From: an uncultured Pseudomonadota bacterium
Lineage (GTDB): Bacteria > Pseudomonadota > Alphaproteobacteria > Rs-D84
Assembly: GCA_902788485.1 (NCBI GenBank)
Contig: CADAKI010000001.1
Location: forward strand, 183,007-247,006
Reading direction: 5' to 3'
Length of the DNA stretch: 64,000 bases
Positions 25,070 through 45,151 of the stretch are shown here, in pieces. The translations under genes were made by a program, and so were the position numbers. The first letter of the stretch is position 1, and each line of letters opens with the position of its first letter. Below the pieces are notes generated by a model. It saw nothing but the letters and a program-made list of their open reading frames with translations. It was not told the DNA's origin and did no database searches.

Positions 25070-25288
25070 TTATTTATGTGTTTTGACGGCGGTCAATGCC
25101 AAACCACGATGCAGCAACGCACACAATAAATCCGGCGGAATCGGCAATCGCCCAATTTCATACAAGTACAAATCGTGCGACGATATTTTCAAAATTTCCG
25201 CCACGGTTGCTTTATTCATATGCAATGATTTGCGTGCCCGACGCAACTGTTGCCCATATGCACGCGCATCAATTAAAACAATAGACAT
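25070..25288 (-). CDS. XRE-family helix-turn-helix protein, 72 aa (copy 1, intact)
   Basis: GQQLRRARKSLHMNKATVAEILKIS...YEIGRLPIP is an HTH_XRE pattern; GGAGG Shine-Dalgarno upstream; paralog at 44933. Confidence 0.85.
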   Translation of the reverse strand: MSIVLIDARAYGQQLRRARKSLHMNKATVAEILKISSHDLYLYEIGRLPIPPDLLCALLHRGLALTAVKTHK

Positions 25289-25315
25289 ATTCTCTCCTCC
25301 ATTTTTTTTGCAACA

Positions 25316-25470
25316 AAAATACCGCGAGAAAAGCGCGGTTGGAGGCAAGAAAACTACAAAGATATAAAGTAGTGTCGCTTATTCAATATATTCGCAACCC
25401 TCCAACCACATGGTGGCGGAGTTATATCTTTAAGGGTTTTCTTGACCCACACTGGCAACACACCAATGCA
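25316..25470 (-). ncRNA. C4/CI-like antisense RNA leader (copy 1)
   Basis: Conserved with 44671-44826. Core stem GTGGTTGGAGG/CCTCCAACCGC (25409-25335) encloses two hairpins and a bulge. The loop and bulge are complementary to upstream sites. It ends in an ACCGCG/CGCGGT terminator-like hairpin. Confidence 0.7.
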
Positions 25471-25475
25471 CAGCG

Positions 25476-25504
25476 ATTTTATTAAAAAAACATCCAGAAT
25501 TCAA
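25476..25504 (-). promoter_or_regulatory. sigma70 promoter of RNA/HTH module copy 1
   Basis: TTGAAT-17-TAAAAT, 5 nt before the conserved TGCATTGG; same spacing as copy 2. Confidence 0.7.
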
Positions 25505-25511
25505 TAAAAAT

Positions 25512-25636
25512 TTGCAAATGGGGATTTTTGCATTTATAATAATCCCATCGCGGAGGGTAATTATTCATTTTTGCACTTTTTACCAATTCCACAAAAGCAT
25601 ACCGCCAGAGTGTAAAAACGAATGATTTTTCTCCGC
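25512..25636 (+). promoter_or_regulatory. pnp promoter and long 5'-UTR hairpin
   Basis: TTGCAA-17-TATAAT, then GCGGAG..ATTATTCATTTTTGCACTTT pairing with AGAGTGTAAAAACGAATGATT..CTCCGC. Confidence 0.6.
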
Positions 25637-25670
25637 AAAATCTAAAAAAAACTAAAAAATGGAGAAAAAT

Positions 25671-27866
25671 ATGTTATTTGGTTTATTTGATAAAAATGAC
25701 AAAGAAAATGTGGCGGCACATCCGTTAAATCACCCGGTGGCTGTTGAAATTAAATATGGTGATGAAACATTGCGCCTGGAAACGGGTCGTATGGCGAAAC
25801 AGGCCAACGGTGCGGTTTTGGCAACAATGGGTGGAACAATGGTTTTGGCAACTGTATGCGCGGAAAAAACCGCGGTCGAAGGCCAAGATTTCTTTCCACT
25901 GACCGTTGATTATCAAGAAAAATTCGCATCCAGTGGTCGTATCCCGGGTTCGCGTGACCGTCGCGAGGGCAAACCATCAACCGCCGAAACATTGACGGCG
26001 CGTTTGATTGACCGCCCAATTCGTCCACTGTTCCCGGATACATTTAAAAACAAGGTGCAAATTATTGCCCAGGTTTTTTCATATGACCGTAAAAACCAAC
26101 CTGATATTTTGGCGATGATTGCGTCATCTGCGGCATTGGCATTGTCGGGTGTTCCGTTTGCGGGCCCCATTGGTGCCGCGCGCGTTGGATATATCGACGG
26201 TAAATATGTTTTGAATCCATCGCGTCGTGATGTTGATATGCGTTCTGAAATGGATTTGGTTGTGGCCGCCACACATGATGGTGTGTTGATGGTTGAATCT
26301 GAAATCGGCGAATTGGACGAAGAAACAACATTGGGTGCGGTTAAATTTGGTTTTGATGCACAACAATCTGTTATTGATGCAATCAACGAATTGGCGGCCC
26401 AGGCGGGTAAAGAACGTTGGGAAACACCAACACACACCGATGAATACATCGCAATGGAAAAAGATTTCGCCAGTTTTGAAAAACAAATCAGTGACGCTTT
26501 GTTGATTAAAGAAAAACTGAAACGGTTGGAAACATTGGCGGAAATCCACAGTGCGGCGAAATCACGCATTCCGGAATTGTTCAATGACACAACAACCGCA
26601 ACATCAACATTGGAATCATGGGCGGACGAAATTATTGAATCTTTGACGGCGCGTATTATGCGTGGCAACATTTTGGCGGGCAAACCGCGTATCGATGGCC
26701 GCGACACAAAAACCGTGCGTCCGATTGAAATCGAATTGGGTGTATTGCCACGCGCACACGGGTCTGCGTTATTCACACGTGGCGAAACCCAGGCATTGGT
26801 GTCATTGACATTGGGTGGCGGCAAAGACGCATTACCGGTTGAATCGTTGGATGGTGCCGATGAACGCGATTTTATTTTGAATTATAATTTCCCGGGATAT
26901 TCCGTGGGCGAGGCCAAGGGTCTGAAATCCCCGGGTCGTCGCGAATTGGGACATGGTAATTTGGCATGGCGTGCATTGCATCCAATGATGCCATCTCGCG
27001 AAAAGTTCGATTATGTTGTGCGTGTATGTTCTGACATTTTGGAATCAAATGGTTCGTCATCTATGGCGACAACATGCGGTGCAACATTGGCAATGATGGA
27101 CGGCGGTGTGCCATTAACACGTCCGGTTGCCGGTATCGCCATGGGCTTAATCAAAGAAGGTGACGATTACGCCATTTTGACCGATATTTTGGGTGACGAA
27201 GACCACTTGGGCGATATGGATTTCAAGGTCACCGGAACCAAGGATGGTATTACCGCATTGCAAATGGATATCAAAATTACATCTATTACTTTTGATATTA
27301 TGAAACATGCATTGGCCCAGGCACGCGACGGTCGTATGCACATTTTGGGTAAAATCGAAAATGCGATTGCGGCACCGCGTGAAAAAGTGTCTGAATTCGC
27401 ACCCCAGGTTTACACAATGCAAATCAATCCTGAAAAAATCCGCGATGTTATCGGCAAAGGTGGTGTCGTTATCCAGGCATTGGTGCGTGATACAAACACA
27501 ACCATTGATTTGGACGATGATGGAACGGTCAAAATATTGGCCACAACATCCGAAGATGCCGACGCCGCAATGGCTCGCATCAAGGAAATTGTTGCCGAAC
27601 CAGAGGTTGGCAAGATTTATCGTGGTGTCGTCAGTGGTATTAAAAACTTTGGTATTTTTGTGAAATTCATGGGTAATTATGAATCCATGGTGCATATTTC
27701 CGACATTACCGGAAAACATCTGAAGAGTATCGAAGATGCCAAATTGAAAGAAGGCGATAGCGTCTGGGTCCGGTTTGATGGCGCGGACGAACGCGGCAAA
27801 ACTCACCTGAGTATGAAGGGCATTGACCAAGAAACAGGTGAAGAAATCAAAAAGCCGGCAAAATAA
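25671..27866 (+). CDS. pnp: Polyribonucleotide nucleotidyltransferase
   Basis: FFPLTVDY, RLIDRPIRPLF, ESNGSSSMA and DHLGDMDFKV motifs, plus KH and S1 domains. An alternative start is at 25659. Confidence 0.98.
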   Translation: MLFGLFDKNDKENVAAHPLNHPVAVEIKYGDETLRLETGRMAKQANGAVLATMGGTMVLATVCAEKTAVEGQDFFPLTVDYQEKFASSGRIPGSRDRREGKPSTAETLTARLIDRPIRPLFPDTFKNKVQIIAQVFSYDRKNQPDILAMIASSAALALSGVPFAGPIGAARVGYIDGKYVLNPSRRDVDMRSEMDLVVAATHDGVLMVESEIGELDEETTLGAVKFGFDAQQSVIDAINELAAQAGKERWETPTHTDEYIAMEKDFASFEKQISDALLIKEKLKRLETLAEIHSAAKSRIPELFNDTTTATSTLESWADEIIESLTARIMRGNILAGKPRIDGRDTKTVRPIEIELGVLPRAHGSALFTRGETQALVSLTLGGGKDALPVESLDGADERDFILNYNFPGYSVGEAKGLKSPGRRELGHGNLAWRALHPMMPSREKFDYVVRVCSDILESNGSSSMATTCGATLAMMDGGVPLTRPVAGIAMGLIKEGDDYAILTDILGDEDHLGDMDFKVTGTKDGITALQMDIKITSITFDIMKHALAQARDGRMHILGKIENAIAAPREKVSEFAPQVYTMQINPEKIRDVIGKGGVVIQALVRDTNTTIDLDDDGTVKILATTSEDADAAMARIKEIVAEPEVGKIYRGVVSGIKNFGIFVKFMGNYESMVHISDITGKHLKSIEDAKLKEGDSVWVRFDGADERGKTHLSMKGIDQETGEEIKKPAK

Positions 27867-44512: not shown

Positions 44513-44636
44513 TTTTTACCTTCCTTTTTTTGTTTGTTTTTTATATTCAGGTCGCACCAACTATAACAATAAAAATTCCAAAATAAAAGAGAATATTATT
44601 CATTAATTGTTTTTCCATATTCTGGAAAAAATAAAT

Positions 44637-44665
44637 TTGCAAACGCGTTCATTATCGGTTAAAAT
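44637..44665 (+). promoter_or_regulatory. sigma70 promoter of RNA/HTH module copy 2
   Basis: TTGCAA-17-TAAAAT, 5 nt before TGCATTGG. Confidence 0.7.
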
Positions 44666-44670
44666 ATGTC

Positions 44671-44826
44671 TGCATTGGTGTGTTGCCAGTGTGGGACAAG
44701 AAACCCTTATTACCAAGTTATCTCCACCACCATGTGGTTGGAGGGCTGTGAATATTTTAAATAAACAGCACTATTCTTGGTAGTAGTTTTCTTGCCTCCA
44801 ACCGCGTTTTTTTTCGCGGTATTTTT
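44671..44826 (+). ncRNA. C4/CI-like antisense RNA leader (copy 2)
   Basis: Paralog of 25316-25470 with compensatory changes; core stem 44734-44805; ACCGCG/CGCGGT terminator-like hairpin. Confidence 0.7.
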
Positions 44827-44828
44827 AT

Positions 44829-44888
44829 TCCCCTTCTTTATGAAAGAAGGGGTGGCACGAAACCGTCAGGTTGAGTGACGGGGTAGTT
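44829..44888 (+). repeat. REP-like palindromic element, family A
   Basis: TCCCCTTCTTTATGAAAGAAGGGGTGG...GACGGGGTAGTT; absent from the paralogous module. Confidence 0.8.
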
Positions 44889-44932
44889 GTGAATCCGCCA
44901 TCCTGGCGGTGATAAATAAAAATGGAGGAGAG

Positions 44933-45151
44933 ATGTCTATTGTTTTAATTGATGCGCGTGCGTATGGACAACAACTGCGCCGGGCGCGCAAATCATTACA
45001 TATGAATAAAGCAACCGTGGCAGAAATTTTGAAAATATCGTCGCACGATTTGTACTTGTATGAAATTGGGTGATTGCCGATTCCGCCGGATTTGCTGTGC
45101 GCGTTGTTGCATCGCGGGTTGGCGTTGACCGCCGTCAAAACACATAAATAA
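44933..45151 (+). pseudogene. XRE HTH copy 2 with an in-frame TGA at codon 47
   Basis: Protein is identical to 25070-25288 except for CGA to TGA at 45071-45073. Confidence 0.85.

Follow-up and report, generated by a model that had tools for sequence, protein, structure and literature searches.

The 64,000-nt stretch of DNA analysed here, referred to as the window (contig CADAKI010000001.1 of assembly GCA_902788485.1, positions 183,007-247,006, forward strand), carries two copies of a structured leader RNA that each precede a small open reading frame (ORF) and belong to a large family of paralogs. The RNA is about 155 nt long and runs from a predicted promoter to a predicted intrinsic terminator. 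It contains two pairs of complementary segments, a1:a' and b1:b', which join its 5' part to its 3' domain and covary from copy to copy, as well as three strands that can pair in two alternative ways. Our reading, to which we assign a probability of roughly 45%, is that this promoter-to-terminator RNA would act as a terminator/antiterminator attenuator clamped by its copy-specific bipartite pairing.

The two window copies align over ~155 nt with 77% column identity, and their differences cluster in the a' loop, its upstream partner a1, the loop of hairpin P3 and the terminator loop. In 5' to 3' order, members of the family consist of hairpin P1; the short G-rich hairpin Pb, whose loop holds b1; a1, which is single-stranded and begins 5-7 nt past b1; an extra hairpin in the longer variants; an A-rich linker; the strands X5 and M; hairpin P5; hairpin P6, whose loop is a'; the strands b' and X3; and the terminator. 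X3 repeats X5, M can pair with either of them (with X5 to form P3, with X3 to form P4), and the terminator 5' arm shares ACC or AACC with X3. Copy 2 lies on the plus strand, with a sigma-70-like promoter site (TTGCAA-17-TAAAAT, 44637-44665) and an RNA that would extend from its predicted start to the end of the U-tract (44672-44826, ~155 nt). Its parts are hairpin P1 (44672-44692), Pb (44693-44706, stem GGG/CCC, b1 CAAGAAA at 44697-44703), the copy-specific upstream partner a1 (44710-44717, TTACCAAG, with TACCAAG at 44711-44717), the P3 hairpin (44722-44744) formed by X5 CTCCACCAC (44722-44730) and M (core GGTTGGAGG, 44736-44744), P5 (44745-44769, with a conserved 15-nt loop at 44750-44764), P6 (44770-44787, with ACTAT at 44770-44774, the a' loop TCTTGGTA at 44775-44782 and GTAGT at 44783-44787), b' TTTCTTG (44788-44794), X3 CCTCCAACC (44795-44803), which can pair with M as the C4-like closing stem P4 and shares ACC with the terminator, and the intrinsic terminator itself (44801-44826, ACCGCG/CGCGGT at 44801-44820 followed by the U-tract). 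Copy 1 lies on the minus strand (RNA at 25315-25469, ~155 nt; sigma-70-like promoter site TTGAAT-17-TAAAAT at 25476-25504) and has its Pb hairpin at 25434-25448 (b1 CAAGAAAA, 25444-25437), a1 AAAGATATAA at 25422-25431, P6 at 25353-25373 (ACTAC 25373-25369, a' loop TTTATATCTTT 25368-25358, GTAGT 25357-25353), b' TTTCTTG at 25346-25352, X3 CCTCCAACC at 25337-25345 and the terminator at 25315-25339 (stem 25339-25321, then the U-tract). A preliminary description of this DNA had claimed that loop and upstream segment are complementary in both copies and that a second internal hairpin, P5, changes but stays paired; every string it named is present at its position, and the P5 stem reads GTTGC/GCGAC (with one G-U pair) in copy 1 and GCTGT/ACAGC in copy 2. 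It had also called the TTTCTTG/CAAGAAA pair, described there as a bulge and its target, invariant, which holds between the window copies but not across relatives, where all seven pairs change on both sides.

The complementarity is stronger than chance would give and extends well beyond the window. Covariance models were built from 14 copies (R1, which scores copies 1 and 2 at 158.7 and 165.3 bits) and, more broadly, from 69 sequences (R2). From 139 covariance-model matches, drawn from three genomes sampled in full and some 60 loci elsewhere, 123 copies were parsed by sequence anchors independent of the model alignment (16 failed); 115 passed quality filters and 111 of these were non-identical. 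Pairing was scored as the longest helix between the 24 nt past b1 and the P6 loop. A helix of at least 6 bp was found for 97 of the 111 cognate combinations, compared with 1905 of 12182 non-cognate ones (15.6%); at thresholds of at least 7 and at least 8 bp the cognate counts were 71 (64%) and 46 (41%), and the non-cognate counts 620 (5.1%) and 189 (1.6%). Tabulating loop against upstream site in more copies, the check that had been suggested for the window pair, thus found the complementarity kept, and the postulated constant scaffold with complementary segments that differ between paralogs recurs family-wide. Several of the 14 cognate pairs that fall below 6 bp stem from a b1 misplaced by the parser. 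The two further leaders in the source genome also have complementary loop/upstream pairs, CATAGAG/CTCTATG in copy 3 and GTCAAACGA/TCGTTTGAC in copy 4.

The scaffold that holds these segments covaries as well. When 58 copies, 57 of them distinct, are aligned by fitting to the model, which biases the alignment toward the model's own structure, pairing holds in 98.1% of the cells, and both sides have changed in 22 of 40 pairs. None of 500 shuffles matched its paired share, its both-sided changes or its covariation score, and displacing the structure by 1-3 columns lowers the paired share to 36-51%. Both-sided changes affect all seven pairs of b1:b', all five of P5, six of eight in hairpin P1 and two of five in P6. 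The P6 stem exists in at least seven complementary versions, among them ACUAC/GUAGU, ACUAU/AUAGU, ACUGU/ACAGU, ACUAA/UUAGU, ACAAU/AUUGU and GUGCA/UGCAU (outside the 58-copy alignment), and the Pb stem has at least 3 bp in 96 of 97 copies. The strands X5, M and X3 vary in concert between subfamilies (CUCCAACC/GGUUGGAGG/CCUCCAACC in one, CUCCUGAC/GUCAGGAGG/CCUCCUGAC in another, with GGCUGGAGG/CCUCCAGCC and GCGACUGGA/UCCGGUCGC as further strand types); the M:X3 stem does not vary between close copies, and its covariation is seen solely from one subfamily to another.

How far the copy-specific segments have diverged is seen best in a subfamily of 15 copies from one genome, G089. All 15 keep six of six a1:a' pairs. 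Yet a1 and a' have a pairwise identity of 0.52, b1 of 0.69 and b' of 0.65, whereas the remainder of the 3' domain reaches 0.88; the combination of a' and b' is distinct in every one of the 15. Among the 35 parsed copies of this genome there are 32 distinct a' loops, and the recurrent ones (TCCAAAG three times, TCGTAAG twice) are each accompanied by a differing b'. The comparisons between copies indicate that both copy-specific pairings are selected.

The preliminary description had treated the P6 loop as a guide and the upstream segment as its target. This part of it is not supported, as a1/b1 and a'/b' lie within one ~155-nt RNA and folding favours an intramolecular helix: in RNAfold minimum-energy structures b1:b' and a1:a' form a single nested long-range helix around P3 and P5 in three of three copies (-51.7 to -53.7 kcal/mol), and RNAalifold keeps b1:b' as the closing helix with P6 as a hairpin. 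Since the partners share one RNA and fold into a single intramolecular helix, compensatory change demonstrates pairing, not specificity in trans. No further partner was found outside these segments. Pairing of a' with the 110 nt downstream showed no cognate enrichment (mean 6.31 cognate, 6.01 non-cognate), nor did pairing of b' with the Shine-Dalgarno (SD) region, scored by Watson-Crick pairs only (mean 3.17 and 3.09), and the source genome holds no bipartite b1-N-a1 site beyond its four cognate loci. The same folds favour a purely structural explanation, in which a1:a' and b1:b' would be ordinary stems, unconstrained in sequence, within a long-range helix, and their diversity would reflect neutral compensatory drift among old paralogs and carry no specificity. 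The recurrence of a' loops in G089 would fit such drift, as would the saturation of the neutral flanks of the paralogs, by which the 52% identity of a1 and a' is not faster than neutral. We nevertheless consider this explanation improbable, because a plain extended helix needs neither the P6 nor the Pb stem: the hairpins that display a' and b1 are conserved, P6 covaries, and in 90 of 97 copies the a1:a' helix leaves no more than 1 nt of the P6 loop unused, which argues for more than a plain stem. Such use of the loop suggests two alternative states or a kissing-type contact.

The two pairings of M are mutually exclusive and one of them overlaps the predicted intrinsic terminator, as in an attenuator. 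We infer the following sequence of events, in which the leader would control transcription of the gene behind it, usually one for a small XRE-type helix-turn-helix (HTH) regulator. At its core M (GGUUGGAGG) would pair either with X5, giving P3, or with X3, giving P4, a C4-like fold that would take up the ACC or AACC base of the terminator stem. The pairs b1:b' and a1:a' would act as a clamp between the 5' leader and the 3' domain. While it is closed, the leader would hold b' and the start of X3, M would stay in P3, the terminator would form and a short RNA would be released; this would be the default, OFF state. If a1/b1 (or a'/b') were occupied instead, X3 would be free for M and termination would be weakened. 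The likeliest occupant would be the cognate short RNA acting in trans, much as the short isoform of the Salmonella RNA IsrK acts on its read-through isoform. As the clamp sequence differs in nearly every paralog, the input, or any mispairing, would be confined to a copy's own RNA, which may be the purpose of the sequence diversity.

Folding under constraints supports such a switch. In three close copies, folded up to the point before the terminator 3' arm, the clamped structure (b1:b' with a1:a' and P3) is ~5 kcal/mol better than the P4 fold. When Pb, b1 and a1 are blocked in the truncated RNA, the minimum-energy structure changes to P4 (M:X3) with P5 and P6 in three of three copies, and this fold removes the base of the terminator stem. 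Two published results, the rise of trp1 transcription when brt1 of Bartonella loses its 3' stem-loop (PMC8070961) and the effect of short IsrK in trans upon its own read-through isoform (PMC4825925), fit the scheme as well.

Several observations weigh against the clamped attenuator or limit what may be built upon it. Full-length RNA with its leader blocked still folds into P3 and the terminator in two of three copies, so the effect, if real, would have to be co-transcriptional, and the energy model takes no account of tertiary contacts or of the kinetics of folding. The clamp would also be present in the short RNA once released, which should hinder its action in trans. Upstream of the -10 box the paralogs cannot be aligned, which means that the a and b segments are not demonstrably faster than neutral sites, and their diversity is compatible also with drift under a constraint on pairing only; positive selection on the address segments was considered and dropped for the same reason, the neutral flanks of the paralogs being unalignable already. 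Orthogonality is incomplete: a helices of at least 6 bp together with b helices of at least 5 bp occur in 27 of 930 non-cognate ordered pairs in G089 and in four of 110 in genome G003, where the cognate copies had been preselected by those same thresholds. In one locus (L043) a1 and a' appear to be truly mismatched, and another (L044) lacks the whole P5-P6-b' part. The copies are, moreover, mutually related, so that the counts overstate the number of independent events.

The 15-nt P5 loop GAAUAUAUUGAAUAA is near-invariant across the family, while all five pairs of the P5 stem covary, and a protein or another RNA could bind to this loop. The leader might be a riboswitch-like attenuator responsive to a ligand or a protein, as proposed (with heme) for the RNA Brt1 of Bartonella, in which a factor bound by the invariant parts, above all the P5 loop and the junction, would decide between P3 and P4, the variable helices being mere scaffold. 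A single common signal would fit the presence of the same leader before genes for XRE regulators, Cys-rich secreted proteins and proteins resembling outer-membrane proteins (OMPs), and both a riboswitch and a heme response are proposed in the accessible parts of the Brt literature (PMC5387305, PMC8070961). Yet no ligand pocket, known aptamer or Rfam riboswitch match was found in the leader, the difference of the clamp between copies is left unexplained, and, in the portion of the Brt review at hand (PMC8070961), changes of temperature and pH are said to be without effect. We therefore regard an explanation of this kind as very unlikely.

The genes behind the leaders bear on what the proposed attenuator would control. 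An ORF of at least 40 aa starts within 170 nt downstream in 84 of the 111 copies, and most of these ORFs encode XRE-like proteins of 70-90 aa. The GUCAGGAGG-type leaders of G089 (at least 15) mostly precede, in place of HTH genes, genes for Cys-rich proteins that carry signal peptides and are 110-220 aa long, or 140-220 aa in the 111-copy set (L085-L109; for example L100:4081-4572 and L107:721-1206), and other leaders precede genes for OMP-like or ~400-aa secreted proteins. Because it fronts such unrelated types of gene, the leader is a general-purpose module in this lineage. In some copies of genomes G018 and G020 (L004, L026, L033, L035) a repeated CAAAGTTCA(A/G)AGTGCAAAGTTC motif stands past the terminator and there is no HTH gene. 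The SD region resembles M: the GGUUGGAGG group has (A)UGGAGG there, and 14 of the 17 GUCAGGAGG-group copies have CAGGAG, or in two cases UAGGAG, a form absent from all 60 copies listed for the other group. In predicted folds of the read-through RNA the SD is paired with X3 in 29 of 81 copies and mostly unpaired in 35 of 81. These figures, which come essentially from two related classes, hint that X3 or X5 could mask the SD in read-through RNA and add a translational layer.

In the window, each copy is followed by a GGAGG SD and a small ORF starting MSIVLIDARAYGQQLRRARKSL. That of copy 1 (25070-25288, minus strand) encodes a 72-aa XRE-like HTH protein (HTH_31, 23.1 bits, below the Pfam cutoff of 27), and all matches of the window ORFs to HTH_31 and HTH_19 are likewise weak and under the curated cutoffs. 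The XRE-like HTH ORF of copy 2 (44933-45073, plus strand; SD GGAGG at 44924-44928) meets an in-frame stop after 46 codons; past this stop (45071-45073) the frame runs on with LPIPPDLLCALLHRGLALTAVKTHK as in the 72-aa paralogs, and we take the ORF for a probable nonsense pseudogene. Copy 2 also has an insertion of ~90 nt (44829-44915) that separates its terminator from the SD and contains two GC-rich hairpins, the first CCCCTTCTTT...AAGAAGGGG followed by TGGCAC and the second CCGCCATCCTGGCGG, and a comparable CCCCG...CGGGGTGGCAC insertion stands behind the RNA of locus L068. A divergent promoter-like site (TTGCAA-17-TATAAT, 25512-25540, plus strand) lies back-to-back with the copy 1 promoter and faces pnp (25659-27866). 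The neighbours of the window copies (infC, der, pnp, dnaX and an OmpH-like gene) are housekeeping genes, which indicates a chromosomal setting and not a prophage, and blastn of the window RNA against phage and plasmid collections gave no match.

The source genome (843,556 bases in 9 contigs, 90.8% complete) belongs to an uncultured alphaproteobacterium of gut/rumen type and has four leader copies: the two in the window, copy 3 at G000:C3:18072-18220 and a divergent copy 4 at G000:C1:126847-127011. Copy 4 scores 54.5 bits, has a GGAG/CUCC Pb stem and a GCUAU/AUAGU P6 stem, and is followed by a different ORF that is not XRE-like. Of 151 genomes sampled from the genus, 138 have R1 matches, over 1,270 altogether with no more than 20 scored per genome, as do 100 of 121 genomes of the order, spread over 13 of 20 sampled genera; by family the counts are 86/91 (f1), 11/19 (f3), 1/4 (f2), 1/2 (f5), 0/1 (f4) and 0/3 (f6). 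The named relatives are uncultured metagenome-assembled genomes ('Alphaproteobacteria bacterium UBA3635', 'uncultured proteobacterium RUG...'). Plain blastn reached the family only within the genus (21 of 24 genomes, and none of 16 in other families). Full scoring gives 47 matches in G089 (~1 Mb) and 23 in G003, some of them in tandem, and an expansion to as many as 47 copies in a genome of ~1 Mb is unusual. Two altered copies were also seen. In L044 (RUG14746) a natural deletion has removed P5 through the terminator 5' arm (P5-P6-b'-X3) and kept the promoter, b1, a1 and P3, and a mini copy (L113:1196-1271, that is G003:C1:328695-328770), beside two tandem full copies, consists of the 3' domain alone right behind a promoter. 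The family is uncatalogued: Rfam 15 returned no relevant family for the whole window at gathering scores or for the regions 44550-44950 and 25250-25600 at E values up to 10.

Among known systems, the C4 antisense RNA of phages P1 and P7 matches the 3' domain in topology. The C4 systems of the two phages differ in two short pairs of segments that set their specificity. Citron and Schuster are said to have described, in 1990, a C4 RNA of P1 and P7 with a1/b1 and a2/b2 sites. The C4 antisense RNA also has an entry in Weinberg et al. 2010 (PMC2864571), and Citron and Schuster 1990 is cited in PMC8201110, as far as the accessible sections of these papers go. The annotation of the phage P1 record runs a1, b1, C4, a2, b2, icd, and on this phage the Rfam models score 68.8 bits (C4), 51 bits (c4-a1b1) and 35.1 bits (isrK, at the a1b1 region and below its gathering score). 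The leader resembles C4 in having a closing stem around two hairpins (M:X3 with P5 and P6, compared with the Rfam C4 structure line on phage P1), in displaying its recognition segments in the loop of the second hairpin (a') and in the 3' junction strand (b'), and in carrying complementary a1/b1 sites upstream in the same transcript, in nested order. A possible though unlikely alternative to the clamped attenuator is, therefore, that the 3' domain (M:X3, P5, P6 with a', and b'), perhaps after processing, acts as a C4-like antisense RNA in trans and binds a1/b1 of transcripts from its own locus, giving copy-specific control of the downstream gene as in P1/P7 heteroimmunity. The distinct (a', b') combinations of all 15 G089-subfamily copies, the pairing of recurrent a' loops with different b' strands, and the restriction of the bipartite site to the four cognate loci of the source genome would suit such a role. 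Against it, neither RF01695 (C4; gathering score 45 bits, clan CL00128), searched across the window at gathering and in both leader regions up to E 10, nor RF03163 (c4-a1b1), searched in these regions, gave a match. The leader also has no downstream a2/b2-like site over the ribosome-binding site, through which C4 acts; its closing stem is directly followed by an intrinsic terminator, and an extra strand, X5, competes for M; its setting is chromosomal, in dozens of copies per genome, and lacks a phage immunity context with icd- or ant-type genes; there is no sign of processing, such as the RNase P cleavage of a precursor that makes the 5' end of C4; and the partner in cis is always close and is preferred by folding. 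The C4-like interpretation given in the preliminary description is thus borne out in the topology of the 3' domain and the upstream a1/b1 sites and fails in the Rfam match, the a2/b2 sites and the phage setting. R2 matches the a1b1/IsrK-like region of phage P1 (L126, 48230-48311) at 18.4 bits, where the aligned parts are the 5' hairpin and a terminator (CAACCGC...GCGGUAUUUUU) that the window RNA has in nearly the same form; this weak match is better taken as a lead than as evidence of homology.

IsrK, of the Salmonella Gifsy-1 prophage, serves as a precedent for the proposed action in trans. According to the accessible text of Hershko-Shalev et al. 2016 (PMC4825925), its short terminated sense RNA acts, in trans, upon the longer read-through isoform from the same locus. 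As is predicted for the leader, transcription of IsrK from one promoter yields both a short RNA that ends at a terminator and a read-through mRNA, and alternative structures set the activity of the long form. The two differ in that action in trans is proposed for the leader by analogy, that IsrK is one prophage locus whereas the leader is an expanded family with copy-specific addresses, and that IsrK acts on translation of an upstream ORF, whereas the predicted target of the leader is termination, possibly with masking of the SD by X3. The furthest extension of this parallel, which is speculative and which we judge unlikely, would be that, in a 1-Mb genome with as many as 47 paralogs, each leader is flipped only by its own short isoform in trans, and that the genus thereby has a natural library of orthogonal switches with two-part addresses. 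Dozens of insulated feedback circuits would then independently toggle XRE regulators and Cys-rich secreted or surface proteins, possibly with phase-variation-like heterogeneity, and Brt/Trp of Bartonella would follow the same addressing rule. If the copy-specific segments do act as addresses, the family would supply ready-made riboregulator parts that share one scaffold yet are insulated from each other, and would show, as an experiment of nature, how cross-talk between paralogous RNA regulators is avoided.

The closest published relative of the leader family is the Brt/Trp system of Bartonella, in which nine Brt RNAs of 194-203 nt, each upstream of an HTH-XRE gene and grouped into a family by their authors by means of BLAST, are called Bartonella-specific in the accessible portion of Tu et al. 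2016 (PMC5387305), and deletion of the 3' stem-loop of brt1 raises transcription of trp1 (PMC8070961, likewise in its accessible portion). The likeness is one of architecture, and homology is unsupported by blastn and by the covariance models. Blastn of the window RNA matched no plasmid, although pBGR3 carries a Brt; R1 and R2 gave at most 14.8 bits, with partial or wrong-strand matches, on five Brt-bearing plasmid loci, the comparison being confined to plasmid copies and leaving Brt1-9 of the chromosome outside it. BLASTP found no alignment between a leader-associated HTH protein and the Trp protein of pBGR3, and an Rfam scan of four Brt plasmid loci (L084 not included) at E values up to 0.1 returned no relevant family. 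Unlike Brt, the leader resides in a different alphaproteobacterial lineage with ~1-Mb genomes, is shorter (~150-155 compared with 194-203 nt), ends in a canonical U-tract terminator and, in relatives, also fronts non-HTH genes; the attenuator role that is known for brt1, from the available text of PMC8070961, is for the leader a prediction from folding. The running text (as distinct from the figures) of the accessible parts of both Brt papers (PMC5387305, PMC8070961) does not mention copy-specific complementary segments, and the openly searchable literature, that is, apart from subscription papers, contains no description of this RNA outside Bartonella or of covarying segments. Such segments are nevertheless present in five plasmid-borne Brts. 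In both systems a structured RNA, present in several copies, has a promoter of its own, carries a terminator-like stem at its 3' end and immediately precedes a small HTH gene. The Brt of pBGR3 was placed by the published BrtR primer (23 of 24 bases, by eye) at about 26480-26690 of L084, right before the annotated HTH gene. In a five-Brt alignment inspected by eye, the plasmid-borne Brts share the order of a Pb loop with b1, a1, an optional hairpin, an X5/M hairpin, P5, P6 with its a' loop, b' and X3. Their a1:a' segments are complementary in five of five, with four sequences (ATTCTAG/CTAGAAT, GTTCGAG/CTCGAAC twice, ATTATAG/CTATAAT and GTTTGG/CCAAAC); b1:b' covaries; and three strands, CCCGG/CCGGGAG/CUCCCGG, are found. 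The leader family is thus Brt-like and C4-like; what was first noticed in the window is confirmed and generalised, and the interpretation then put upon it is supported in part. Covarying long-range pairings and a three-strand switch by the terminator provide a concrete, testable mechanism for Brt-type RNAs, and the same features occur in Bartonella, where Brt1 and Trp1 control the adhesin BadA.

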